Shown piece by piece: positions 4,484 to 64,000 of a DNA stretch of 64,000 nucleotides. The position numbers and the translations under genes were made by a program. The first letter of the stretch is position 1; each line of letters starts with the position of its first letter. Source of the stretch: Acidobacteriota bacterium (GTDB taxonomy: Bacteria > Acidobacteriota > Vicinamibacteria > JAXLQT01); assembly GCA_046331505.1 (NCBI GenBank), contig JAXLQT010000008.1:11567-75566 (forward strand), given 5' to 3'. The notes beneath the pieces were generated by a model. The model did no database searches. It worked only from the letters and a program-made list of their open reading frames with translations, and was not told the origin of the DNA.

Positions 4484-4565
4484 GGCCGTGGGGCCCGCAC
4501 GAGGTGAGATTGCCGCGGCGCGCTCTTGTCCGGGGTCGGCGCAGCTCCCATGCTCTCTCCGAGGA

Positions 4566-4580
4566 GCAAGGTGGGTGCCA
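4566..4580 (-). promoter_or_regulatory. Sigma-54 promoter on the minus strand, driving the usp gene at 3950-4483.
   Basis: The plus strand reads GCAA-ggtgg-GTGCCA, which is TGGCAC-N5-TTGC on the minus strand with perfect consensus and spacing. It is divergent from the plus-strand sigma-54 promoter at 4623. Confidence 0.6.
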
Positions 4581-4622
4581 CTGGACGCCGCGGCAACCAC
4601 TCGTCCCGCTTCCCGCTTCTCG

Positions 4623-4638
4623 TGGCACCTCGCTTGCT
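4623..4638 (+). promoter_or_regulatory. Sigma-54 promoter for the tandem-Usp gene.
   Basis: TGGCAC-ctcgc-TTGCT at 4623-4638 is a perfect -24/-12 consensus. It lies about 70 nt upstream of the ATG at 4706, which has a GAGAGGAGG RBS. Confidence 0.65.
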
Positions 4639-4705
4639 GGATCGAGAGAGCGAGCCACGGCTCCGGGGGCGCCCGGGGGCTCCGAGACCCTGAGAGGAGG
4701 ATGCC

Positions 4706-5989
4706 ATGTCCATCATCTTCGGTACGGACTTCTCGAACGAGGCCATGAAGACCGGCCACTGCGCGGCCGCGATCGCCGCGAGGCTCGGCGAGCGCATCGT
4801 CCTCGTCCACGTCGTGGATCCGATGAGGCCCGGGACAGTCGTCGAGGAGCCCGTACTGGGCCGCGCCGCGGACTGCCTGCGAAACGAGGCGGATGGCTTG
4901 CGCGCCCTCGGCGCGGAGGTGGAGGAGGACCTGCTGATCGGCGCTCCCGACGAGGCCATCCTGGAGGCGGCGCGAGCGCGGCGGGCGCGGTTCGTCATGC
5001 TGGGCGCCCTGGGGCGTCGTGCCGCCCCGCGGTGGTCGGTCGGAAGCGTCGCCGAGCGAACCGTCCAGGACTGTCCGGTCCCGGTCATCGTCGTGCGCGA
5101 CGCGATGCGAATGGTGGGATGGGCGCGCGAGCAGCGTCCCCTCAGGGTGATCGTCGGCGGCGAGCGTTCCGCGACGTTCGACGCGGCGGTCCACTTCCTG
5201 CGCGAGCTGGAGCGCGTCGGCCCGCTCGAGCCCACGGTCGCGCACGTCTTCCACCCGTCCCTCGAGGCCGATCGCCTGGGCCTCCGGGGCCATGGCGACG
5301 ACGAGAGAGTGCGCGCCGTGATCGCACGCGATCTCTCCGCGCGGCTACGGGAGATGGGGGAGTCCTTCCGGATCGTGACCCGCGCGAGCTACGAGACGAC
5401 CGGGCGGGAGCTCGTCGATCTCGCCGCGGAGGAGCGGGCCGACCTCCTCGTGGTCGGCACGCACCAGCGCCACGGTCTCGCCAAGCTCTGGTATGGCTCC
5501 GTGTCGCAGGCGGCCCTGCAGCTTGCGTCCATGTCGGTGGCCTGCGTTCCTCCGCAGTCGGACGCATCCCACGTCGAGGAGCGTCTGCCCCGCTACCGCG
5601 CGGTCCTCGCAGCGACCGATCTGTCGACACTCGGAGACCTCGCCGTGCGTCATGCCTGCACGGTGGCGGGGGCCGAGGGCGAGGTCCATGTGTGCACCGC
5701 CGTTTCCGCGGCGGACCGCCGGGACAGCGAGAAGATCGCCAAGGAGATGAAGGAACGCGTTCCACGGAGCCGGGCGGCTGGCGCGCGGACGTTCTTCCAT
5801 GTCGAGCGCGGCGACGATCCCGCACGCGCCATCTGCCAGGTGGCGGAGCGCATTGGCGCGGATCTCGTCTGCGTCGCATCCCACGGCCGTTCCGGAGTGG
5901 AGCGCGCCGTTCTGGGATCGGTGGCACAGGAGCTGCTGCGCCTGACCGAACGTCCGGTCCTGGTGGTGCGCGAGGCCACAGACGTCTGA
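4706..5989 (+). CDS. Tandem universal stress protein (three Usp-like domains).
   Basis: 427 aa. Usp motifs repeat three times (IVLVHVVD..., MLGALGRRAAPRWSVGSVAERTV; LLVVGTHQRHGLAKLWYGSVSQ; LVCVASHGRSGVERAVLGSVAQEL). Confidence 0.85.
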   Translation: MSIIFGTDFSNEAMKTGHCAAAIAARLGERIVLVHVVDPMRPGTVVEEPVLGRAADCLRNEADGLRALGAEVEEDLLIGAPDEAILEAARARRARFVMLGALGRRAAPRWSVGSVAERTVQDCPVPVIVVRDAMRMVGWAREQRPLRVIVGGERSATFDAAVHFLRELERVGPLEPTVAHVFHPSLEADRLGLRGHGDDERVRAVIARDLSARLREMGESFRIVTRASYETTGRELVDLAAEERADLLVVGTHQRHGLAKLWYGSVSQAALQLASMSVACVPPQSDASHVEERLPRYRAVLAATDLSTLGDLAVRHACTVAGAEGEVHVCTAVSAADRRDSEKIAKEMKERVPRSRAAGARTFFHVERGDDPARAICQVAERIGADLVCVASHGRSGVERAVLGSVAQELLRLTERPVLVVREATDV

Positions 5990-45497: not shown

Positions 45498-47201
45498 TTG
45501 TCCCACTCGCACCACCCGCAAGGATTCCTCGGGAAGTACGTCTTCAGCTTCGACCACAAGGTGATCGGAATCCAGTACATCGTGACGGCGATGATGATGG
45601 CCCTGGTGGGCGGGGCGCTGGCCCTGATGATCCGCATGCAGATCACCTGGCCAGGGAAGGCGATCGTCTCCCCCGAGACCTACCTGAGCCTCGTCACCAT
45701 GCACGGGACGATCATGATCTTCTTCGTGGTGTCGCTCGCGCTCGTGAGCGGGCTGGGCAACTTCGTGATCCCGCTTCAGGTCGGAGCGAAGGACATGGCT
45801 TACCCGCTCCTGAACATGCTCTCCTACTGGGTCATCGTCCCCGCGTGCGCGCTGATGGTGGGCTCCTTCTTCGTCGAAGGCGGTGCGGCGTCGGCCGGAT
45901 GGACATCCTACCCGCCGCTCTCCGCCGTCAAGGGCGCGGTGCCCGGCTCGCAGATGGGGCAGACGCTCTGGCTCCTCGCGATGGCGCTCTTCATCGTCTC
46001 CTTCACCATGGGCGGGCTGAACTACCTGACCACGATCCTCTGTTGCCGCGCCCCCGGGCTGTCGATGATGCGCCTGCCGCTGGTCATCTGGCACTTCCTG
46101 CTCGCGACGATCCTCGGGCTGCTGTCGTTCCCGGCGCTGACGGCGGCCGCGGTGCTGCTGCTGTTCGATCGCCATCTCGGCACGAGCTTCTACCTGCCGA
46201 GCGGCCTCATCATCGGCGACACGGTGCTCAAGAACGGCGGCGGGACCCCGCTCCTGTTCCAGCACCTCTTCTGGTTCCTGGGGCACCCCGAGGTGTACGT
46301 CCTGGTGTTGCCGGCAGTGGGGGTCGCCTTCGACGTGATCCCGACCTTCACCCGGCGGCCGCCGTTCGGCTATCGCGTCACGGTGACCGCGCTCATGGTC
46401 ATCGGGGTGCTGTCGATGATCGTCTGGGGTCACCACATGTTCCTGACCGGGATGAACCCGTACGTCGGGGAGTACTTCTCGGTCGCGACGGTGCTCATCA
46501 CGGTTCCCTTCGCGGTGCTCGGGGTCAACCTCCTCGCGAGCCTCTGGCGCGGCCGCATCCGCCTCGCGGCACCGATGCTGTTCGCGCTCGGCCTCATCTC
46601 CACCATCGGAGCCGGCGGCTTCGGAGGACTGTACCTCGGCACGGCAACCTCGGACATCTACCTGCACGACACCTACTTCGTCGTGGGCCACTTCCACCTG
46701 ATGATCGGCGTGACGACGCTTCTCGCGACCTTCGCCGGGATCTACTACTGGTTCCCGAAGATGTTCGGCCGGCACATGAACGAGACGTTCGGGAAGATCC
46801 ACTTCTGGCTGACCTACGCGCCGATGCTGCTCCTGTTCGTCTCGATGCACCTCCAGGGGCTCGGAGGCGCGCTCCGCCGTCAGTACGACCCGACGAGCTA
46901 CGAATACGCCCGCTCCGTGCGCGAGATCGATCCGATCTTGACGGCGCTGGCGATCGTCGTCGTGTCCTCCCAGTCGATCTTCGTGGTGAACTTCGTCTGG
47001 AGCGCGTTCAAGGGCAAGAAGGCGGCCGAGAACCCGTGGGAGGCGACGACGCTCGAATGGACCACGCCCTCGCCGGCGCCGCACGGCAACTGGGATGCGA
47101 CCCCCGTCGTCACGCACATGCCCTACGTCTTCGGGAAGAACGGCGCCAAGAAGGACTACGTGATGCAGGGCCAGGTGCCCGAGCGGGAGAAGGTCGCGTG
47201 A
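45498..47201 (+). CDS. coxA: Cytochrome c oxidase subunit I.
   Basis: [31 protein letters not shown] and VGHFHLM signatures. TTG start after AGGAGG. The upstream part of track ORF 44610..47201 overlaps coxB and is not part of the gene. Confidence 0.9.
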   Translation: [567 protein letters not shown]

Positions 47202-47707
47202 GCGCCGAGGCGCTCCGTTCGCGGACGAACGACGTCGCGCTGCTCGCGGTCCTTTCGATCGCGACGATGCTCTTCACCTCGTTCACGGCGGCCTATGTCA
47301 TCCGCCGCACCAGCGTCGACTGGGATGGGCTCGCCCTTCCCGGCATCGTCTGGCTGAACACGGCCCTGCTCCTGGGAAGCAGCGCGACCATCGAGGCGGC
47401 GAGGCGGAGGGATGCCGGCCGGTGGCTCGCCGTCACAGCGGTCCTCGCCGCAGGCTTCGCCTGCGGGCAGGTCGTGGCGTGGCGGATGCTGACGGCCGCG
47501 GGCACGCCGCTCGGCGCTGGGCCGCACGCCGCGTTCTTCTATGTCCTCACCGGCGTCCACGCGGCGCACTTGGCCGGCGGGCTCGGCGCCCTGTGGCGCG
47601 TGATGTCACGAGGCGCGCGCGCCGAGGCCGTGCGGCTGCTCTCGATCTACTGGCACTTTCTCGCGGCAGTGTGGCTCTACGTCCTGCTGCTCTTGACCGC
47701 GCTGTAG
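47198..47707 (+). CDS. Short cytochrome oxidase subunit III-family protein.
   Basis: GTG overlaps the coxA stop (GTGA). TM protein with YWHFLAAVWLYVLL (subunit III signature YWHFVD..W). Only the last 170 codons of track ORF 45845..47707 are real. Confidence 0.65.
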   Translation: MSAEALRSRTNDVALLAVLSIATMLFTSFTAAYVIRRTSVDWDGLALPGIVWLNTALLLGSSATIEAARRRDAGRWLAVTAVLAAGFACGQVVAWRMLTAAGTPLGAGPHAAFFYVLTGVHAAHLAGGLGALWRVMSRGARAEAVRLLSIYWHFLAAVWLYVLLLLTAL

Positions 47708-47716
47708 GAGGCGATA

Positions 47717-48343
47717 ATGGCTTCGGCGTACGAGCTCGGCCACGACACATACTCCGACCGCTCGGACTGGCGGGGCGGGGTCTCGCCATTCGGCACGTCC
47801 TGGCAGAAGACGATGATGTGGTTCTTCATCGTGTCGGACGCCCTCCTCTTCGGCGCGTTCCTCGCGGCCTACGGATTCAAGAGGCTGGCCGCCGGGACGT
47901 GGCCGGACCGGACGCACGTCTTCCACATGTCCTACATCACGGTGATGACGTTCGTGCTCATCACGTCGAGCGCCACCATGGCGTCTGCGGTCGCGGCTGC
48001 CAGCGCGAGCAGGAAGCAGGCAGCCTCGCGGTTCCTCCTGTTGACGATGCTCGGAGGCGCGGGGTTCCTCGGGATGCAAGCCTACGAGTGGTCGAGCGTG
48101 ATCCGCGAGGGCGCGCGGCTCCACGCCAATCCGTGGGGCGTCCCCGACTTCTCGAGCTTCTTCTTCGTCATCACGGGCTTTCACGGAACACACGTCCTCA
48201 TCGGAGTGATCGTGCTCGCGGCCACGCTCTTTAGGAACGCGACGGGCCGCGTGTCGCGCGAGGGCGTGGAGCTATGCGGGCTCTACTGGCACTTTGTCGA
48301 TCTGGTCTGGGTGTTCATCTTCGGGTTGTTCTATCTCGTGTAG
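47717..48343 (+). CDS. coxC: Cytochrome c oxidase subunit III.
   Basis: MASAYELGHDTYS... HGTHVLIG...GLYWHFVDLVWVFIFGLFYLV. Confidence 0.9.
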   Translation: MASAYELGHDTYSDRSDWRGGVSPFGTSWQKTMMWFFIVSDALLFGAFLAAYGFKRLAAGTWPDRTHVFHMSYITVMTFVLITSSATMASAVAAASASRKQAASRFLLLTMLGGAGFLGMQAYEWSSVIREGARLHANPWGVPDFSSFFFVITGFHGTHVLIGVIVLAATLFRNATGRVSREGVELCGLYWHFVDLVWVFIFGLFYLV

Positions 48344-48346
48344 GGA

Positions 48347-48800
48347 GCGAACCGGCGGGGGACAAGCCCCCGCCCTACGGACGGATCACGGAACCGGCGG
48401 GGGACAAGCCCCCGCCCTACGGACGGATCACGGAACCGGCGGGGGACAAGCCCCCGCCCTACGGACGGATCGCGGAACCGGCGGGGGACAAGCCCCCGCC
48501 CTACGGACGGATCGCGGAACCGGCGGGGGACAAGCCCCCGCCCTACGGACGGATCACGGAACCGGCGGGGGACAAGCCCCGCCCTACGGACGGATCACGG
48601 AACCGGCGGGGGACAAGCCCCGCCCTACGGACGGAACACGGAACCGGCGGGGGACAAGCCCCCGCCCTACGAACGGATCGCGGAACCGGCGGGGGACAAG
48701 CCCCCGCCCTACGAACGGATCGCGGAACCGGCGGGGGACAAGCCCCCGCCCTACGAACGGATCACGGAACCGGCGGGGGCAATCCCCGCCCTACGGACAT
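48347..48800. repeat. Tandem array of about 11 x 42 bp, containing the same palindromic core as the 23.6-24.2 kb array in the opposite orientation.
   Basis: Unit GAACCGGCGGGGGACAAGCCCCCGCCCTACGGACGGATCACG with minor variants. It starts 4 nt after the coxC stop and ends about 70 nt before the coxIV ATG. Confidence 0.95.
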
Positions 48801-48870
48801 CGAGGTACCGGCGGCAATGAGCCCGCCTTCGGAAGTCGAGCTGCGGGCACACGCCCCGGAGAGGTTGGTC

Positions 48871-49119
48871 ATGGCACCTTCGTACAAGAGCTACTGGATC
48901 GCTTGGTCGATCCTCCTCGCCATCACCGTGGTGATGGTGTCCATCGCCACGCCCGCGGTCCTCCTCGCGGGGATCGCCGTGAAGGCGAGCATCATCGCGC
49001 TCTGGTTCATGCACCTGCGCCACGAGCGCCTCGCGCTCACGGCGACGGTGATTGCGGCGAGCCTCCTGACCTGCCTCCTGCTGTTTGGCCTGATCGCGAC
49101 CGACGGGCTGGCGTCGTGA
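48871..49119 (+). CDS. Prokaryotic cytochrome c oxidase subunit IV (two-TM small subunit).
   Basis: MAPSYKSYWIAWSILLAITVVMV...WFMHLRHERLALTATVIAASLLTCLLLF. RBS GGAGAGG. Confidence 0.75.
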   Translation: MAPSYKSYWIAWSILLAITVVMVSIATPAVLLAGIAVKASIIALWFMHLRHERLALTATVIAASLLTCLLLFGLIATDGLAS

Positions 49120-49366
49120 TCGTCGCGGTCGCGCCGTGCTGTCTATCGGGGGGCGCGACGGCCCGCCTCGCTTCCGGGATCAACGCGGCGACCGTGTTGA
49201 TGCTCCTGGTGCCTTTCGTCCTGATCGGTCTCTCCGCGCTCCGGCTCGCTCGGTGGGCGGCGAAGGATCCGTCCGCCGCCGCCTCGACGGCCGAGGAGGC
49301 GCCAGGAGCCGTCTGATCCTGGCACATGCGGTGCAAATGGATCGGGGAGAGGGGGCGAATCCGATG

Positions 49367-50398
49367 GCAACCGCGGCGGCCGAGAATCCAGATGCCTGGA
49401 GGTTGAGAAAACGCGGGTTCCCCGCGAACGGCACACCGTCCCAGAAGCTCCGGTACCTCGTACACTACGCGACCCTGGCTCCGTCGAGCCATAACAGCCA
49501 GCCCTGGCTGTTCCTCGTGAGCGACGACGAGCTGTCGCTCCTCGCCGACCGGAGCCGGGCGCTACCCGTCGTGGATCCGACCGATCGCGAGCTGACGATG
49601 AGCTGCGGGGCGTCGCTCCATCACCTGCGGGTGGCGATGAGGCGCTTCGGCATGACTCCCGAGCTCCTGCTGTTTCCGGACGCCGCGAGCCCGGATGTCC
49701 TCGCCCGCGTCCGTATCGGCGCCCGCGTGGAGCCCACGTGCGAGGACCGCGAGCTCTTCCGCGCCATACGCAAGCGCCACACGAACCGCCATCGCTTCGA
49801 GGAGCGTGTCGTGCCCGGCGACGTCGTCGCGACGCTCGAGCACGCCGCGCGCCTCGAGTCCGCATGGCTCGTCCCGCTCGACGCGGCGGCCCGCGAGGTG
49901 GCGGCGTCGCTGGTGATGGAAGGCGATCGCGCACAGGCGAGCGACCCGCGCCACCGGCGGGAGCTCGCGTCGTGGATCCACCCGAACAGGACGGCGAGCC
50001 GGGACGGGATGCCTGGGTCGGCCATCGGGCTCCCCGATCTGATGTCCTACGTCGGTCCGTTCTACCTGCGGACCTTCGACTGGGGCGACCGGCAGGCGGC
50101 CCAGGACTGGCAGCTCGCGCTGGGATCGCCGGTACTCGCCGTTCTCGGCACCGCGCGGGACGACGCGCGAGGCTGGGTCGAGGCGGGCCAGGCGCTCTCG
50201 CACGTGCTGCTCGCCGCGGCGGCGCGGGGGCTGTCGGCGTCCTTCCTCAACCAGCCGATCGAGCTTCCCGATCTGCGCCTCCGGATGGCAGTGCTCATCG
50301 AGGGGCGCGGGCATCCGCAGGCCCTGCTGCGCATGGGGTACGGACCTCCCGCCGAGCCCACGCCGAGGCGCTCGTGCGCCGACGTGCTGGTGAGCTAG
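49367..50398 (+). CDS. Nitroreductase-family (Acg-like) FMN-binding protein.
   Basis: ...LRYLVHYATLAPSSHNSQPWLF... is a nitroreductase fold repeated twice. ATG at 49367 follows GGAGAGGGGG. The track ORF begins earlier, at 49136. Confidence 0.65.
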   Translation, partial: ATAAAENPDAWRLRKRGFPANGTPSQKLRYLVHYATLAPSSHNSQPWLFLVSDDELSLLADRSRALPVVDPTDRELTMSCGASLHHLRVAMRRFGMTPELLLFPDAASPDVLARVRIGARVEPTCEDRELFRAIRKRHTNRHRFEERVVPGDVVATLEHAARLESAWLVPLDAAAREVAASLVMEGDRAQASDPRHRRELASWIHPNRTASRDGMPGSAIGLPDLMSYVGPFYLRTFDWGDRQAAQDWQLALGSPVLAVLGTARDDARGWVEAGQALSHVLLAAAARGLSASFLNQPIELPDLRLRMAVLIEGRGHPQALLRMGYGPPAEPTPRRSCADVLVS

Positions 50399-52340: not shown

Positions 52341-52411
52341 GGGCGGGGGCTGGTCTCCCGCCGGCTCGGTTCGGATACGCGCCGGTGAGCCCGTCCGGTT
52401 CGGATCGGATC

Positions 52412-52672: not shown

Positions 52673-55311
52673 TCAGGGCTGCGGAGGACCGGTGACCCGG
52701 GCGGCAAGAGCGCGGGCGCGGGCGCGAAGCGGCGCGTAGACGGCGTGGACATCGGACAGGGGAGCCTGGCCGGCCTCGGCGCGTCGAGCGACGTCGGCGG
52801 CCAGATCGCCGAACAGCGTCTTGCCCATCGTCGCCGCCAGTGGCGGGGCCGGGGCAGGCGTTGCGGGGGCAGGCGTGCTTGACTTTCGATCACCTTCGCC
52901 CACGACGCTCGACTTCGCGGGCGCCGCGACCGCCACCGCGGCCCTGTAGAGGGCGGCGGCACCGGCCGCGTCACCCGCCTCGTAGCGCAGGTAGCCGGCG
53001 AGGAGCCGCGCCTCGACGCTCTTGGGATTGGTGCGCACGGCTCCCTCGAGCAGGCGCGCTGCCTCGCCGCGCTCGCCCTTGACGATGAGCAGCTCGCCGA
53101 GCCGCACGATGGGGCCGGTCTCCTCGCCGTTGATGGCGTGCGCGCTCCTGAGGTGCTCCTCGGCCCCCGAGACGTCGATCGGCGTGCCCTCGTCGGGCGA
53201 CGCGAGGAGGGCGGCCAGCGCCAGATGGCCGCGCGCGCTTCTCGGGTTCACCAGCACCAGCCGGTCGAATGCCGCCCGCGCTTCGGGCCTCTGTTCGAGC
53301 TTCTGGCGGCACTGGCCGAGGTAGTAGAGCGCGTCCTCGTGCCGCGGATCGATCGTGAGGGCCTCTTCGTAGGCGCTCGCGGCTCCCGCGAAGTCCTTCC
53401 GCGTGCGCCGTCCCGTCGCCTCGTCGAGCCTCTGCCAGAATAGCCGTATGTCTTCCCGGCGCGCGACGCGTGCGGGGGCGCGGCCCCGGCGACCTCGATC
53501 GCCGGGTTCCCTTCGGTGATCCGCAGTGTGTGATCGACCGGCAGGTTCTCGAAGGACTGGGTGGTGCCGCTCGGCCACGCCACCTCGATGCGATCGATGG
53601 ATGAAGCCCCGGCGAGGCCGAAGTGGACCTCTCCGGGAGACGATTGCGACAGGTAGGACGGTCCGCCTCCGACGGCGCGCACCTGCACGCCGGCGCTCGA
53701 TCGGAGCGTCACGAGCGCGCCATTGGCGAATGTGGTGCTGGCAGGGAAATGGCTGCCCTTCGCGCCCCGCAGCACCAGGCGGGCGAAGTGGTGGCCGGTT
53801 GCCTGCGTGTTCTGGAGGAGCCGGGCGTCGCCGCCGTTGACGGCGATCGCGCAGTCGACGTCGCCGTCACCGTCGTAGTCGGCGCAGGCGGATCCGCGCC
53901 CGACGTGCTCCGTCTGGAAGGGGGCTCCCCCGCGCGTGCCTGCCTCGAAGAACCCCTCGGCCTTTCCCGCGTTCCAGAAGAGGAGGTCCTTCATCGGCAC
54001 GAGCCGCGACGCATCGTCCTCGCGCTGGAAGGTGCTTCCGTTGACGACGAGGAGATCGAGCCGCGCGTCGTTGTCGTAGTCCAGGAACTCGGTTCCCCAG
54101 CCGACGTAGTCGAGGGCGATCTGGCCGAGCCCCACGAGGTCGGCCTCGTCGGTGAAGTGGAGGGGATCGCGTGGCGAGGCGGCGATGTTGCCCTTCTGGT
54201 TCACGTAGAGGGCGTTCTCCTGGGCGATCCAGTGCGTGATGAAGATGTCGAGGTCGAGGTCTCCGTCCCAGTCGCCGATGGCGAGGCCCATCGCGCCACG
54301 GTAGTCTGCCACCCACGCCGAATGGCTCACGTCCTCGAACGTCCCGTCGCCGACGTTCCGGTACATCGCATTGTCCGAGATGTCGTTGGCGACGTAGAGG
54401 TCGGGCCAGAGGTCTCCGTCGAAGTCCGCCCAGGCGGCGGACAGGGATCTCCCCGAGGGGTTGTCGACACCGGCGCGCGCTGCGCTCTCGGCAAAGCGCA
54501 TCCGCCCCTCGTTGTGGAACAGGAGGTTCCGCTCGGGGGTGAAGCTCGAGGGGTTGAGACTGGCGGGGACCGTCGCCTCGTACATGCGAGACGCGCCAGA
54601 CGCGCTCGCGACGTACCGGACGTATCCGCACACGTAGAGATCGAGAGCGCCGTCCCGGTCGTAGTCACCCCAGGAAACGCCGGTCCAGAAGCCCTCGGGC
54701 TCTCCCATTCCACTCTCGCGCGACACGTCGGCGAAGGTGGCGCCGTCGTTCCTGTAGAGGGCGATCGTGCCGAATCGCGAGACGGCGAGATCCAGGTCGC
54801 CGTCGCCGTCGGCATCCCCCCAGGCGGCGCCCATGCCGAGGCCTCTCGCTCCCACGCCGGCCTCCGTGGTCACGTCCGTGAACCGGCCCCCGTCGTTCCT
54901 GTAGAGCGCCGAGCGGGCGGGCGATGCCTCGATCTCCACCGCCGTGGCCGTCAGCGGGCCAGACTCGTTGACCAGGAACAGATCGGGATCGCCGTCGCCG
55001 TCGTAGTCTCCCCACGCCACTCCCGAACCCATGTCCTCGGGGAGCTGCGTCGACCGCTTGCCGTGGAAGTGGTGGAACGCGATGCCGGCGTCGGCCGCCA
55101 CGTCCCGCCACGCAACATCGGGGATCCCGTTCGGCGCCGGCCGTGCGAGGTCGTGCGTGATCTCGTCGCTCGATGCGGCCTCGACGCCCGGGGTGTAACC
55201 GATGACGCGGGGCCCGCGCAGGAGGAGCAGAGCGGCACCGGCCGTCGCCGTGACGCATGCGTAGAGGATGCGGCGCTGGGTGCGGCGGGTGAGGGGACCT
55301 CGTGCGATCAC
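52673..55311 (-). CDS. CRTAC1-family protein (FG-GAP/VCBS repeats plus ASPIC/UnbV domain) with C-terminal TPR domain. The frame changes near 53475.
   Basis: GDYDGDGDPDLF-type FG-GAP/VCBS repeats and the ASPIC-like region are in track ORF 53248-55311. TPR repeats are in track ORF 52673-53578. Start is GTG at 55311. Confidence 0.65.
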
Positions 55312-58068: not shown

Positions 58069-60639
58069 ATGAGGGGAGCGGGCCAGGTGAGTGCAGCCAT
58101 GGCGGCATTGATGGCCGCCGCCCCGTCGGCCGCCGCGGTCGTCATGCCCTTCGAGGAGCGCCTGAACGCGCTCGAGCGAATCGAGCGGGTCTACGACGCG
58201 CGGCGCACCTGGCCGGAGGTCAATCGTCGCCCGAAGCCCGCCTTCACACGGAGGCTTTCTCGCGAGGCGCTGGCGCGCAAGGCGGAGCGCGCCCTCCGGG
58301 AGTCCGCCGCGCTGGACGTCTTCTTCGAGGCGCCGATCACCGCCGGCGATCTCCGCGCGGAGTGGTCGCGCATGTCGCGCGACACCCATGACCCCGCGAT
58401 GCTTCGCGAGATCCTCGAGGCCGCCGGGCACGACGAGCTCACAGTGCTCGAGTGCGTCGTCCGTCCAGGCCTCGCGGCGAGACGTTTCCGTGAGCGGTAT
58501 GCGTCGGATCGGCGCACCCACCCGGCCGTGCGAGACGCTGGCTGCCTGGGGCTGGCCATCCCGATCCTCACGACTCCGGGGGAGTCGCCCGACGCATGGC
58601 TGGAGCATCTGCCGATGCCGCAGGACTGGAGGACTCCAGCCATCGATCTCGACGCCGCCGGGCCCCATCGTCCCGAACGCGCTGGCATCCACAGCGACCC
58701 AGATCCGCGAATCGTGGGACAGGCGCTCTGGACGGGATCCGAGATGCTCGTCTTCGGGAAGGGCGCCTGCCGTGGAGGACGCTACGACCCGGCGACCGAC
58801 GAGTGGCACTGGATCCCGTCCGTACCAAGCAGCCTCTACCCGAACGCCACCGTCGTGTGGACGGGCAGCGAGGCGATCCTCTGGGGAGGCTCGGACGGCC
58901 AGTACTACTCGAACTGGGGTGCGAAGTACGACCCCGTTGCCGAGACCTGGACACCCATCGGTGGACTCCCCGCGGCCCGCTACCGCCACTCCGCCGTCTG
59001 GACAGGGACGGAGATGATCGTCTGGGGTGGTCAAGTCGCGAACCACTTTCCGACGAACACGGGAGGCCGGTACGATCCGGTGACCGACTCGTGGACGCCC
59101 ACGGGACTCGGCGCTGGCACCCCTTCGCCGCGAGAGGTCCACACGGCAGTGTGGACCGGTCAGACGATGATCGTCTGGGGCGGCCAGTACTTCGGGACGC
59201 TCGGGGACGGAGCTTCCTACGATCCCGTAGCCGACTCGTGGAACACGTTGCCGTCGTCCCAGGCTCCGTCGGCCCGCGTCGGCCATTGCGCGGTCTGGAC
59301 CGGCTCGACGATGCTCGTGTGGGGAGGAGAGACCTTCTCTCCCTCGCAGGAGCTCGGAGACGGCGCCGCGTTCGATCCCGTCGCGAACGTCTGGCGTCCC
59401 GTGTCCCTGTTGAACGCGCCGTCTCCCCGGCACGGTCACACGATGATCTGCACCGGTTCCGAAGCCATCGTCTGGGGAGGGAGCGGTCCGGCCCAGCTCC
59501 TCGAGGACGGCGGCCGCTACGATGTTGCCTCGGACACGTGGCGCCCGACCGCGGTGAACGGATCGTCGCCAGTCGCGCGGATCGATCACTGCGCCGCATG
59601 GACGGGCACCGAGATGATCGTGACGGGCGGCACTCCCGCGAGCGGGACCGGCGGCCGTTACGACCCGGTCGCCGATTCCTGGACGCCGACGCGCTCAGAA
59701 TGGACCGCCCCGATCTTCGGAAGCGGCGTGGTCTGGGATGGCGCGGAGATGATCGTCTGGGGTGGGAACGATCTTGCCGGGAACGTGACGAACCAAGGAG
59801 GACGCTACGATCCCGCCTTGGACGCCTGGACGCCGACGGCGCTGACCACGGGCGTGCCGCCTCCCGCCATCCTGGGTGCGGCCGTGTGGACGGGAACGGA
59901 GATGATCGTCTGGGGGGGCTCGAACGGGCAGGAGGGTGGCCGCTACGATCCGCTGACCGATTCGTGGGCCGCGACGACCACCGGCGGCGCTCCGGAGCCA
60001 CGCCAGTACCCGACTGGCGTGTGGACAGGAACCGAGATGATCGTCTGGGGTGGGGAGGGGAACGGTGGCGGCCTGGACACCGGGGGCCGATACGATCCCG
60101 TTTCCGATTCGTGGCGGCCCACGTCCACGGGTGCCGGATGTCCGGCTCCTCGCTACTGGCACGCCTGCGTCTTCACGGGCTCGCTCATGATCGTGTGGGG
60201 GGGTGCGAAGTACGGGGTCTACTACGGGGACGGCTCCCTGTACGATCCCGCATCAGACTCGTGGCTTCCCATGACCGGGGCGGGCGCTCCATCGGCTCGA
60301 TGGGGCTCGACGGCCGTCTGGACGGGAGTGGAGCTCATTGTGTGGGGAGGATACGGTGCGGGGGGGCCTCTGAACACCGGAGGCCGCTACGATCCCGTGG
60401 TCGACTCGTGGAACACGATGGGTGTAGGCGCCGGCACTCCGGTGTGGCGCTCTGGACACACGGGCGTCTGGACCGGCCAGGCCCTCATCGTCTGGGGGGG
60501 CGATTCGGGCAATTACAATTATCTCGACAGTGGAGGGCTTTATATCCCCGCGACGGACGCCTTTGGCAACCTACGCCGCTGGCGGACGCGCCGTACAGAC
60601 GTCAGGAGCACGCTGCGGTGCGGAGCGGCACAGAAATGA
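58069..60639 (+). CDS. Giant Kelch-like beta-propeller repeat protein (about 14 units) with a 200-aa N-terminal non-repeat domain. The frame breaks near 60555.
   Basis: Unit AVWTGTEMIVWGG...GGRYDPxxDSWTPT of about 50 aa repeats about 14 times. An alternative start at about 58099 has an AGGTGAG RBS. Confidence 0.7.
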   Translation: MRGAGQVSAAMAALMAAAPSAAAVVMPFEERLNALERIERVYDARRTWPEVNRRPKPAFTRRLSREALARKAERALRESAALDVFFEAPITAGDLRAEWSRMSRDTHDPAMLREILEAAGHDELTVLECVVRPGLAARRFRERYASDRRTHPAVRDAGCLGLAIPILTTPGESPDAWLEHLPMPQDWRTPAIDLDAAGPHRPERAGIHSDPDPRIVGQALWTGSEMLVFGKGACRGGRYDPATDEWHWIPSVPSSLYPNATVVWTGSEAILWGGSDGQYYSNWGAKYDPVAETWTPIGGLPAARYRHSAVWTGTEMIVWGGQVANHFPTNTGGRYDPVTDSWTPTGLGAGTPSPREVHTAVWTGQTMIVWGGQYFGTLGDGASYDPVADSWNTLPSSQAPSARVGHCAVWTGSTMLVWGGETFSPSQELGDGAAFDPVANVWRPVSLLNAPSPRHGHTMICTGSEAIVWGGSGPAQLLEDGGRYDVASDTWRPTAVNGSSPVARIDHCAAWTGTEMIVTGGTPASGTGGRYDPVADSWTPTRSEWTAPIFGSGVVWDGAEMIVWGGNDLAGNVTNQGGRYDPALDAWTPTALTTGVPPPAILGAAVWTGTEMIVWGGSNGQEGGRYDPLTDSWAATTTGGAPEPRQYPTGVWTGTEMIVWGGEGNGGGLDTGGRYDPVSDSWRPTSTGAGCPAPRYWHACVFTGSLMIVWGGAKYGVYYGDGSLYDPASDSWLPMTGAGAPSARWGSTAVWTGVELIVWGGYGAGGPLNTGGRYDPVVDSWNTMGVGAGTPVWRSGHTGVWTGQALIVWGGDSGNYNYLDSGGLYIPATDAFGNLRRWRTRRTDVRSTLRCGAAQK

Positions 60640-61750
60640 TCGTCTGGGGAGGAAGATTCTCGCTGATGGGTGGGCGTTACGACTCCGGTGTCCGACACCT
60701 GGAGTCAGGGACCGACGCCCCTCGGGGACGACGTGCTCGTTGCCAAGGGATCCTCTTCCGGTGCCGGCTACGACTCGACCGTCGCCGGATACCGGCTCGA
60801 TCGCGGCGCCCCCGCCTTCTGGGGATTCCCGATTCCCGACGCTGGTAGGTTATGGAGCCAGCGTCGCCGGCGGGGACGTCATGGCCGGGGCCCTGCCGAG
60901 ATCCTCACCGGGCCCGGTCCTGCCCCCAGCATCTGCCAACGATCCGCGGGTTCGACCGCGCGGCGGCGCGCCGGTCGCGGGCCTCGACTTCCAGGCCTAG
61001 CGGCGCGACTGGCTTCGCGCCAACGGCCTCCGGCGCCATCGACACGGACGGCGAGATCCTCAACGCCCCGGCCCCTCCCCACCTTCGGCCCCCACGTGCG
61101 CGCCCAGGTACTTGGGAGGCGTCGTGTCGGCCATCTCGAAGGTTAGCTTCTACTCGTACGGAACTCCTCAAGTACGGCGTCGGCGTCGCCTCGGGGGATC
61201 TCGAACAGGACGGATATGACGAGATCGTGACGGGGCCGGGACCCGGTCCGGTGTTCGGACCGCACGTTCGTGCGTTCGACTTCGACGGGTCCGTCATCGC
61301 AGCAAAGCAGAAGATCAGCTTCTTCGCCTACGGCACGCCCCGTTACGGAGTCAATGTCTCGGCGGACGACGTGAACGGTGATGGCGCGGCGGACGTCACC
61401 ACCGGCCCCGGCCCGTCTCCGCCTGCGCCGCACCCGCGGCTTCGACGTGACGAACGGCGCTCCGGCTCCCATTCCCGGACTGTCGGCCTTCCCTCCATCC
61501 GCGCACCGGCCTGAACGTCGGCGGTGGAGATCTCGACAGCGACTTCAGGGACGAGATCGTCGCGGGTCCAGGACCCGACCCGACCTACCCATCGCGCTTC
61601 TCCGCCTACGACTTCGACTCGGGCGCACTCTCCGCAATCCCCGCCCTCGATCTCGATCCTTTCCTGCTCTCCTGCGGGACGAACGTCGGTGCCTCGAACC
61701 TGGGCCTCTGAGCGGATCGTTCCTCTCGCCGCCGTGGTCCTGGCGGTCGC
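60640..61750 (+). pseudogene. Degenerate FG-GAP-repeat region broken across at least 4 reading frames.
   Basis: FG-GAP-like peptides (DEIVTGPGPGPVFGPHVRAFDFDGS; SADDVNGDGAADVTTGPGPS; NVGGGDLDSDFRDEIVAGPGPDP) appear in different frames of track ORFs 60670-61146, 60852-61514 and 61378-61797. Confidence 0.5.
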
Positions 61751-64000
61751 GCACCCCTGCGATGGCGCCGCGCGCTTCCACGACGACGCGCCGATGACCG
61801 GCAAGGCCCTCTGGACGGGCACGGAGATGATCTTCTGGGGAGGAACGTCGGGATCGGGCGCACGCTACGACCCCGCCGCGAATGTGTGGCATCGGATGTC
61901 GACCGCCACGAACGCTCCGGGTTGGCGGAGCGGCTTCGGTATGGTGTGGGCGGGATCGGAGCTCCTCGTCTGGGGAGGCCTCCTCGGCGGCGGTTACACG
62001 AACACCGGAGCGCGCTACGAGCCGCGTTCCGACTCGTGGCGTCCTCTCTCGACCGCGGCCGGTTGCCCGACGGCGCGCGGCAGCCACTCCGCCGTCTGGA
62101 CCGGCGCGGAGATGATCGTCTGGGGGGGCTACGACGGCTATTCCTACCTCGACGACGGCGGGCGCTACGACCCTGCGACGAACGTCTGGCTTCCCATCGC
62201 CCCGACGTCGTCCACGCCAAGGCCGCGAAGGGACCATGCGGCGGTCTGGACGGGGAACAGAATGGTCGTCTGGGGAGGCAGGGCGTTCAGTAACTACGTG
62301 ACGGGCGGAACGTACGATCCCGTGACCGACGCCTGGGCCCCGACGTCCACGGGTCCGGGCTGCCCCACGGCACGAACCGACTTCACGACTGTCTGGACGG
62401 GCTCGCAGATGATCGTGTGGGGAGGACAGGACGGTGCCTACGGCAATTCTGGTGCGCGCTACGACATCGGCACGGATACGTGGACTCCAACGTCGATCGG
62501 CGGGCCGAGTCCGCCCACGGGCCGGTGGGCACACACAGCGGTCTGGACCGGAGCCGAGATGATCGTGTGGGGAGGCGAGTCCGCCGGCGGCCAGCTGGGT
62601 GACGCCTACGATCCTGCGACAGACGCCTGGCGGCCCGTTTCGTCCACTGGCGCGCCGAGCGCCCGTTCCCACCATGCTGCCGTCTGGACCGGCAGCGAGA
62701 TGATCGTGTGGGGCCAGTGGATGGAGGAGCCTGCCTCGGACGGAGGAAGTTACGACCCAGCGACGGATGCCTGGGCTCCCGTGCTTGGGGAGGATGGGCC
62801 AGACGTCGACGGCCCCGCGGTGTGGACCGGAACGGAGCTCCTCGTGTTCCCCGTCTATCAGGCCTCGGCGTGGCGCTTCGATCCGGATCGCGAGGCTTGG
62901 AGCGTCACCTCGCCTGGGCCGACACCGACGAGCCCCGAGTCCGTCGTCTGGACCGGGGTCGAGGCCATCACGTGGGGCGGAGCGACAGTGCGTGCCGGCC
63001 GGCGTTACGACCCGTCGCTCGACACATGGGGTTCCGTCAACCCGAACAGTCCGGCGGCGCTGTATCTCACCTCGGCAGTGTGGACAGGGACCGAGATGAT
63101 CACCTGGGGGGGCGCGACGGCGGCAGTCCAGCAGAACACCGGCGGTCGTTACGATCCCGTCTCCGACTCCTGGCTCGCGACCTCGACCAGCCCACCCGTT
63201 CCTTCGCCGCGATGGGGACATGGAGCAGTGTGGACGGGTACGGAGATGGTGATCTGGGGAGCCCGCTACCCGGCGCCGACCGACACCGGTGGCCGCTATG
63301 ATCCCTCGACGGACTCGTGGCGGACCACATCGACGGGGGCGGGCGTCCCGAGCCCTCGCATGGGATTCAGCGCGACATGGTCCGGGACGCGCATGATCAT
63401 CTGGGGTGGCGACGCCCAGTCGATCGGGGGCGCCTACGACCCCGCCGCCGACTCGTGGCAACCAATGGGTACGTCGGGTCAGGTCCCGTCCGCGCGGCGG
63501 TTTCATGGCGCCGACTGGACGGGTACGTCGCTCGTGGTCTGGGGAGGGGAATCTCTCGCTTCGCTAGACCTCGACACCGGCGCCCTCTACGACCCAGTGC
63601 TGGACACGTGGCGCCGCGTCACGACCGAGGATGCTCCCGAGGGTCGATTCGCTCCCCATGTCGTGTGGACCGGACGCGACGTCCTGGTCGAGGGCGGCGG
63701 CAAGCCAGGGGGTGGTCTCTACGATCCCGCACGCGACGTCTGGAACCACGGTCCGAGGACACGCGGCGACGTGGCCCTCGCGGGCAAGGGTCCCGGTGGA
63801 ACGGCCCTCTACGACGCGGCGTTCGACGCTCTCCGCGTCGACGGCGTCCAGCTTCCTTGGACGCTGGATCCCTTCCCCGGCGAGACCGGCGGCGGCGTGA
63901 ACCTCTGCGGCGCGGATGTCGTGGCCGGCGGAGCGGAAGAGATGCTGGCGGCGCACGGACCGTCTGCCCAGTTTTCGCCCCGAGTCCTTGGCTTCGACCG
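61697..64000 (+). CDS. Second Kelch-like beta-propeller repeat protein, partial: it runs off the window end.
   Basis: My own translation gives a continuous open frame from about 61697 (GTG, signal-like VPRTWASERIVPLAAVVLAVAHP) with at least 14 units A(V)WTG.EMI.WGG...YDP..D.W to position 64000. It is absent from the ORF track because there is no in-window stop. Confidence 0.6.

Follow-up and report, generated by a model that had tools for sequence, protein, structure and literature searches.

The question raised by this locus is why two operons for different respiratory membrane complexes carry the same repeated hairpin between two of their cistrons. In the 64-kb window, by which we mean the whole stretch of Acidobacteriota DNA that was analysed, one palindromic core recurs in tandem at two places, in a cytochrome oxidase operon (array 2) and in a cytochrome c-NrfC-NrfD operon (array 1). 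The preliminary description had read this sharing as an argument for function, such as mRNA stability, stoichiometry control or translational coupling, and against random repeat insertion. We consider it very probable that one GTAG-tagged, RAYT-class REP, GTAGGGCGGGGGCTTGTCCCCCGCC, is repeated head to tail in both arrays. What looked like a novel regulatory RNA of respiratory operons is then a selfish repeat of a known sort, in large arrays.

Array 2 lies on an operon read from the + strand in the order coxII, coxI, split coxIII, array 2, coxIV, as assigned by Pfam. On its 5' side is the second part of the split coxIII, encoding the C-terminal COX3 part (47717..48343, + strand, Pfam COX3), whose product ends at the same residue as its homologues; on its 3' side, coxIV (48871..49119, + strand, Pfam COX4_pro) has a GGAG Shine-Dalgarno motif of its own, 7 nt 5' of the ATG. 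The gap between the two genes is 527 nt. Within it, Tandem Repeats Finder reports a repeat at 48349-48798 with a period of 42, 10.8 copies, 96% matches and a score of 809. The tandem array described earlier, about 11 units of 42 bp, is therefore real as an array, but it consists of ten units of 42 or 41 nt, GAACCGGCGGGGGACAAGCCCCCGCCCTACGGACGGATCACG in the mRNA sense (48349..48766, + strand), near-identical and all head-to-tail, and of two degenerate terminal units (48767..48840, + strand) that appear on unit splitting. Unit 11 starts at 48767 and has 38 nt; unit 12 starts at 48805 and is more degenerate still (GTACCGGCGGCAATGAGCCCGCCTTCGGAAGTCGAG). These two are probably the oldest copies or array-edge copies. 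Several variants are common to adjacent units, namely ATCGCG in units 3-4, CCCC in units 6-7 and CGAACGG in units 8-10. The array starts 5 nt past the TAG stop codon of coxIII (48341-48343), not 4 nt past it as first given, and its first REP hairpin (48354..48374, + strand), an 8-bp stem of GGCGGGGG/CCCCCGCC with the loop ACAAG, begins 10 nt 3' of that codon.

Array 1 occupies the same kind of position in an operon on the - strand, where Pfam gives the order tetrahaem cytochrome c, NrfC-like, array 1, NrfD-like. The operon opens with the tetrahaem cytochrome c gene (25155..25802, four CXXCH motifs), followed by the gene for the NrfC-like 4Fe-4S subunit (24245..25195, Pfam Fer4) on the 5' side of the array; the gene for the NrfD-like membrane subunit (22273..23559, assigned by Pfam) is on the 3' side, and the gap between the cistrons is 685 nt. 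Here Tandem Repeats Finder reports 23615-24223 with a period of 69, 8.9 copies and a score of 1132, and unit splitting places nine units of 67-69 nt at 23594..24213 (- strand), each made of the REP (AACCGGCGGGGGACAAGCCCCCGCCCTACAGACCG...) and a 44-nt spacer. Units 7-8 have private variants in common, and the first REP stem begins 38 nt past the stop codon of the NrfC-like gene. Both arrays start 5-35 nt past a stop codon, which is where GTAG-type REPs are expected.

What the arrays share is the REP itself. The 23-nt core CCGGCGGGGGACAAGCCCCCGCC occurs ten times on the + strand within 48352-48750 and nine times on the - strand within 23638-24208, whereas dinucleotide shuffles lead one to expect 0.00 matches. 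Core counts and Pfam assignments thus bear out that both arrays have one palindromic core, sit between cistrons, are co-oriented with transcription and give the same sense hairpin, ...CCGGCGGGGGACAAGCCCCCGCCCUAC..., in both mRNAs. The common sequence is longer than had been stated, extending to AACCGGCGGGGGACAAGCCCCCGCCCTAC[A/G]GAC[C/G]G. Read on the opposite strand, the core is GTAGGGCGGGGGCTTGTCCCCCGCCGGTT, in which a GTAG head precedes a GC stem of 8 bp with a loop of 5 nt. The GTAG stands 5' of the stem in 19 copies, eight in array 1 and 11 in array 2; it is on the + strand in array 1 and on the - strand in array 2, so that the mRNA sense is equal in the two transcripts. A GTAG tetranucleotide with an adjoining palindrome is what defines a GTAG-tagged REP (PMC3733652), and the conserved core of about 29 nt with its 8-bp stem falls within the ranges for GTAG-type REPs (stem 6-13 bp, element 20-40 bp). 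Each unit is predicted to fold into an RNA hairpin of about -19 kcal/mol. The sense strand is only 6% T, a scan of 47600-49400 for promoters and terminators yielded neither a U-tract terminator nor a promoter-like site, and no Rfam family reached its gathering threshold anywhere in the window.

An exact scan of the bare 21-nt palindrome against 185,579 species-representative genomes returned at least 111 loci in other genomes. Among the matches listed, the full pattern GTAGGGCGGGGG-N4-6-CCCCCGCC is present in 141 copies in 95 loci, in genomes other than the source and mostly of different phyla. The taxa among the loci listed include Anaeromyxobacteraceae and other Myxococcota, Chloroflexota, Methylomirabilia, Planctomycetota, Poribacteria and others. 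The same matches include many separate loci in single MAGs, for example Anaeromyxobacteraceae SMAG_U11622 and SMAG_U13704. CTAC, although absent from the query, follows the core on its 3' side in the great majority of the listed copies; those that lack it are mainly Firmicutes hairpins, which seem to be unrelated. The identical 25-nt REP is spread over at least six phyla (Acidobacteriota, Myxococcota, Chloroflexota, Methylomirabilota, Planctomycetota and Poribacteria).

The position of these copies was determined with a GC3-based suffix-score gene caller, whose approximate calls were checked against the genes called for two of the loci (L113 and L115). Among the matches listed, 131 of 141 REP copies (93%) are intergenic, the median distance from the REP to the 3' end of the upstream gene is 66.5 nt, and many copies are within 20 nt of that end. 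In the 76 intergenic regions of this set with both neighbours called, the flanking genes are co-directional in 40, convergent in 23 and divergent in 13. This agrees with the published distribution of REPs, which are extragenic and near gene 3' ends (PMC3733652). The preliminary description had held that its functional reading would fail if copies proved randomly oriented with respect to genes, and at the level of the family they are: in the 40 co-directional regions among the matches listed, 16 have the CTAC sense, 14 the GTAG sense and 10 are mixed. The family shows no preference for either orientation with respect to transcription.

GTAG-tagged REPs and RAYT transposases form a known class (Nunvar et al. 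2010, PMC2817692; Di Nocera et al. 2013, PMC3733652), and the REP of the window keeps such company in other genomes. A search of all loci with an E. coli RayT sequence, which served only as a probe, pointed to two ORFs, and Pfam confirmed Y1_Tnp in both. In a Myxococcota MAG (L075), positions 4504-5022 encode a Y1_Tnp protein (Pfam E=8.4e-12) with two REP copies upstream and tandem copies in both orientations downstream; its homologues are labelled 'REP element-mobilizing transposase RayT' and 'REP-associated tyrosine transposase' in JGI and NCBI. At two further loci (L139 and L140), RAYT homologues have the identical 25-mer GTAGGGCGGGGGCTTGTCCCCCGCC beside them, and one from Chloroflexi (L141) is flanked by REP variants with the same CTTGT loop. 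The RAYTs beside the identical REP are only 55-70% identical. A RAYT-like ORF in a Terriglobales locus (L018) is not flanked by the REP of the arrays, a jackhmmer search from the two Y1_Tnp ORFs brought up no further RAYT among 118 sequences, and neither the RayT probe nor jackhmmer detected a Y1_Tnp ORF within the 64-kb window. We also considered whether the inverted REP pairs 2 kb apart at two loci (L074 and L060) enclose a RAYT; they enclose ordinary genes instead, for a short-chain dehydrogenase, a LuxR-type regulator and a superoxide dismutase. Taken together, the element has the structure and distribution of GTAG-type REPs, and the adjoining RAYT genes and the high copy number are found in other genomes.

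The resemblance to GTAG REPs covers the GTAG at the end of a GC-rich 8-bp palindrome whose loop is short, the extragenic copies mostly just 3' of genes between co-directional or convergent ORFs, the Y1_Tnp/RAYT genes adjoined by the identical element, and the formation of clusters by reiteration of a singleton with its flanking DNA. Unlike GTAG REPs in general, the window holds pure head-to-tail arrays of 9-12 units only; singleton REPs and inverted dimers are absent from its 64 kb. Against the 24 published GTAG families (PMC3733652), the window REP is placed at the level of the class. The nearest published parallels are the GTAG-23 blocks of T. roseum and the GTAG-1 arrays that flank EPS genes in Thauera MZ1T (PMC3733652): in all of these, GTAG REPs of GC-rich genomes form large blocks at few loci or arrays by gene clusters, but the stem sequences and the hosts differ and the arrays of the window sit inside operons, between cistrons. 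The head-to-tail arrangement is under-represented in most REP families (PMC3733652), and the window arrays are atypically large for head-to-tail REPs.

We also compared the arrays with better-known intercistronic hairpins. In BIMEs, the orientation of the REPs alternates and linker motifs are defined, and clusters in E. coli rarely exceed about a dozen REPs. All copies in the window are direct, and the absence of alternating orientation within either array rules out a BIME. The likeness to E. coli BIMEs and REPs, some of which stabilise mRNA (malE-malF and others), lies in the intercistronic hairpins within polycistronic mRNAs, which by analogy would be expected to form a barrier to 3'-to-5' exonucleases, and in possible interference with ribosomes by a hairpin near the stop codon. 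In the Rhodobacter puf operon, intercistronic hairpins give segmental mRNA stability, and GC-rich hairpins between membrane-complex cistrons could by the same analogy give unequal stability to the segments here; the puf hairpins, however, are unique and conserved features of their operon, not dispersed copies of a mobile repeat.

Head-to-tail arrays of the same REP were sought in the fetched genome loci and by scanning metagenomes for pairs of direct copies separated by 14-44 nt. They exist elsewhere with unrelated spacers, at spacings of 31-83 nt and with up to nine copies: 52-53 nt in nine copies (L119), 31-32 nt in six (L118), 59 nt in 7.5 copies of a unit that is a REP dimer (L126), 59 nt in 4.6 copies (L131), 46 nt in four (L040) and 40 nt in three (L010). 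Most of these arrays lie between convergent genes of unrelated function, directly past the stop codons, and co-directional neighbours were seen in a single case (L015). The arrays of the window are at the top of the observed size range, probably because a long contig resolved them. The preliminary description had given weight to unit lengths that are multiples of 3. The consensus lengths of 42 and 69 hold, but not the meaning attached to them, as the units vary by 1-2 nt and, at the level expected by chance, 10 of the 27 head-to-tail spacings at other loci are multiples of 3.

Both arrays are lineage-specific insertions in otherwise compact operons and not conserved operon parts. In three orthologous cox operons, with CoxIII identities of 64-67%, the coxIII-coxIV gaps are 34, 26 and 63 nt; gaps of 26-63 nt against 527 nt mean that array 2 is such an insertion, which speaks against the earlier view of it as a functional part of the operon. 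Private variants are shared by neighbouring units and the edge units are degenerate, a pattern that points to growth by recent tandem duplication in place, not by repeated independent insertions, and the near-identity of the units shows that they are young.

On this basis, we propose the following. In a first step, a single REP would have been deposited just past the 3' end of a gene, the usual landing place of REPs, presumably by a RAYT (a Y1 HUH transposase) acting on a single-stranded DNA hairpin. In a second step, the REP together with some adjoining sequence (17 nt for array 2 and 44 nt for array 1) would have been amplified in place, likely by replication slippage or unequal recombination. 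The outcome would be what is now seen, very young units that are 96-100% identical, with older degenerate units at the edge.

Other explanations of the arrays have to be weighed against this one. That the arrays are translated, either as an N-terminal repeat-peptide extension of CoxIV or, in array 1, as a stand-alone repeat protein of 230 aa, with EPAGDKPPPYGRIT or TGGGQAPALQTAMPIGPPPRDQQ as the expected peptides, is suggested by the open frames of both arrays, by consensus units of 14 and 23 codons, and by an array 1 ORF that overlaps both neighbours, the upstream stop codon at its GTGATGATG... start and the nrfD start through an ATGA at its end. The coxIV frame is indeed open through array 2 (ORF 48274-49119), as first reported, and that of 23556-24248 on the - strand through array 1; this openness loses its significance, as stop triplets are absent from every sense frame of both units, which makes it automatic. 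In the array 2 unit, ATG, GTG and TTG are likewise missing from all sense frames. The GC content is flat across codon positions (0.77/0.67/0.75 for array 2, 0.74/0.69/0.79 for array 1), unlike that of the flanking genes (about 0.57/0.47/0.92, within 0.55-0.65/0.43-0.48/0.89-0.94), and units of 41, 38, 67 and 68 nt shift the frame, so that the conceptual product would switch its repeat peptide midway. Spacings elsewhere in the family show no triplet preference, the end of CoxIII coincides with that of its homologues, and the N-terminus of CoxIV aligns with theirs, which leaves no repeat-derived extension. The arrays are non-coding, and we regard their translation as highly improbable. Still less credible are a CRISPR-like array and a string of intrinsic terminators. 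Palindromic repeats at regular intervals are indeed seen in CRISPR arrays, but here the would-be spacers do not differ from unit to unit and all units are direct copies, with nothing to suggest spacer acquisition. Terminators would call for a T-run or a terminator-like site, of which there is none in 47600-49400, nor is there any Rfam match. An assembly artefact, or a copy number inflated by long-read assembly of a simple repeat, is somewhat easier to imagine and yet improbable. Homopolymer variants (CCCCC/CCCC and GGGGG/GGGG) are typical of long-read errors, and the sole independent contig ends within unit 1. This contig, a 1.6-kb short-read assembly (Logan SRR26348421, L112), was found by an exact-protein look-up with CoxIII, while the same look-up with CoxIV gave no match; the closest other CoxIII is only 74% identical to that of the source. 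It repeats the junction from the coxIII stop codon to the first REP, and its end inside unit 1 is expected where a repeat breaks k-mer assembly. The junction between coxIII and the first REP is thereby independently confirmed, and the copy number of array 2 rests on one assembly. Substitution variants that are ordered and common to neighbouring units, comparable arrays in unrelated metagenome contigs, and two different arrays with different spacers on one contig also count against an artefact, though the copy number and the homopolymer-length variants (CCCCC versus CCCC) could include long-read assembly errors.

The most substantial rival is the one favoured at the outset, a selected intercistronic RNA module for respiratory membrane-complex operons that sets stoichiometry through stability, processing or coupling. 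Both arrays of the window are indeed within operons for membrane redox complexes and in the same sense, the window has no other copies, the hairpins are predicted to be very stable, and the first stem of array 2 is 10 nt past a stop codon. REPs were, moreover, first described as intercistronic stabilisers of upstream mRNA, according to the literature summary in PMC12306157. Against this, two arrays have an even probability of being co-oriented by chance; the orientation of the family is random, with the 16, 14 and 10 mixed regions among the matches listed; most other arrays separate convergent genes of unrelated function; the insert is missing from the three orthologous cox operons; and the young, near-identical units carry no covariation or conservation signal of selection. 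The argument that sharing between operons speaks for function does not survive the finding that the identical REP is dispersed in many genomes and flanks RAYTs. With a dispersed REP, random orientation, orthologues that lack the insert, chance spacing and a trivially open frame, the case for a selected function is unsupported, and we think such a module unlikely.

A selfish origin would still allow the arrays to affect their transcripts. Each mRNA would carry 9-12 GC-rich hairpins of about -19 kcal/mol with no U-tract, and intrinsic termination is not expected because the U-tract is lacking. E. coli REP hairpins impede 3'-to-5' exonucleases, according to the work summarised in PMC12306157; by analogy, the hairpins of the window could block such enzymes and stabilise the upstream segments, coxII-I-III in one operon and cytochrome c-nrfC in the other. 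The untranslated gaps of 527 and 685 nt would abolish translational coupling and, if the E. coli analogy holds, expose the downstream cistron (coxIV or nrfD) to polarity or processing. At 10 nt past the stop codon, the first stem of array 2 may be close enough to disturb terminating ribosomes, as E. coli REPs suggest. A passive hairpin effect on the mRNA, through segment stability and uncoupling of the cistrons, is thus plausible by analogy, and any such effect is most economically seen as a tolerated by-product and not as a designed regulator. A bolder reading is that, in the source Acidobacteriota lineage, the same-sense arrays inside operons have been co-opted as selected 'insulators' that stabilise the upstream mRNA, throttle the downstream cistron and tune the subunit ratios of two respiratory membrane complexes, the copy number of the array serving as a rapidly mutable expression dial. 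We regard this as unlikely; if it were true, the complexes tuned would be the cytochrome oxidase and the cytochrome c-NrfC-NrfD module.

The identification of the repeat matters in several respects. An RNA element that seemed purposeful and common to two respiratory operons proves to be a repeat of the REP/RAYT family, and a false lead is thereby removed. In size, the arrays of the window rank with the largest pure head-to-tail arrays observed in this REP family, and they occupy operons that are normally compact. The identical REP across phyla, beside RAYTs that have diverged, bears on how REPs and RAYTs spread. Such arrays also break short-read assemblies and yield spurious ORFs, which is relevant to the annotation of MAGs.

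Beyond the two arrays, the window holds little of this kind. It has two REP loci, both of them large arrays, and one doubtful relic, a possible degenerate single REP-like hairpin at 52342..52364 on the - strand. This hairpin has two mismatches to the core and no GTAG head; it is perhaps a relic, perhaps a coincidental resemblance. Elsewhere in the 64 kb, a GTAG head followed by such a stem-loop occurs in one hairpin only, at 58194.

The 25-nt REP GTAGGGCGGGGGCTTGTCCCCCGCC, a GTAG-tagged palindrome, is identical in MAGs of at least six groups (palindrome loci L001-L111, the RAYT-bearing contigs L075 and L139-L141, and the window itself); among the matches listed, these are Myxococcota, Chloroflexota, Methylomirabilota, Planctomycetota, Poribacteria and the source Acidobacteriota MAG. 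The RAYT transposases associated with this REP are only about 55-70% identical. Taken together, an identical REP across phyla and RAYTs of such limited identity suggest two possibilities: the REP may have spread horizontally, or its sequence may be held under a strong constraint imposed by the RAYT.

The closest counterparts of the two arrays in the window are head-to-tail REP arrays on two metagenome contigs, both lying between convergent neighbours, with nine copies of 52-53 nt on one (L119, 2392-2861) and six copies of 31-32 nt on the other (L118, 676-867). Short-read assemblies are systematically fragmented by this REP family, with contigs ending at the REP: the Logan short-read contig that carries coxIII (L112, SRR26348421) breaks within unit 1 of the array between coxIII and coxIV, and most RAYT homologues are on contigs of about 1-3 kb. 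The coxIII gene upstream of this array consists of two adjoining ORFs, at 47198-47707 (+) and 47717-48343 (+). The same split is present in three related operons (L113, L115 and L116), so it is an ancestral feature and the repeat did not cause it.

At the array between the NrfC-like and NrfD-like genes, the 3' end of the NrfC-like gene carries four TGA stops in a row, in frame (TGATGATGATGA; 24233-24248 (-)). Shifted to a different frame, these nucleotides spell GTG-ATG-ATG-ATG-ATG, the start of a 230-codon ORF through the array, the 3' end of which is overlapped by the nrfD start by ATGA. Despite these tidy-looking ends, this ORF has no coding signal.

Hairpins of similar form also occur without the tag. 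Among the matches listed, five Flavonifractor or Clostridiales loci (L007, L029, L034, L052 and L069) have the same 21-nt palindrome as the REP and no CTAC tail; they lie near apparent gene ends in lower-GC Firmicutes. Rather than REPs, they are probably hairpins of independent origin with no relation to this family. In the window, a REP-like hairpin at 52342-52364 (GGCGGGGGCTGGTCTCCCGCCGG) differs from the core at two positions, lacks the GTAG head and may be a decayed single REP; a weakly called gene has its 3' end close by.

Other repeats in the window lie in proteins. Seven tandem 219-nt coding repeats (20275-21888 (+)), which contain CXXCH haem motifs and correspond to 73 aa apiece, are internal to an 895-aa multihaem cytochrome c, and the adjoining 681-aa cytochrome (18006-19936) has related repeats. 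The stretch at 58700-63750 (+) contains about 24 diverged repeats, each roughly 147-150 nt long. They encode ...VWTGxEMIVWGG... and a second motif, ...GGRYDPxxDxW..., which suggests a large beta-propeller-like, perhaps Kelch-like, repeat protein or proteins. A Pfam search with translated 58596-60848 gave no match, the frame probably being the wrong one. An FG-GAP / ASPIC-UnbV repeat protein is encoded at 53248-55311 (-), and its internal DNA repeats were flagged by the repeat finder.
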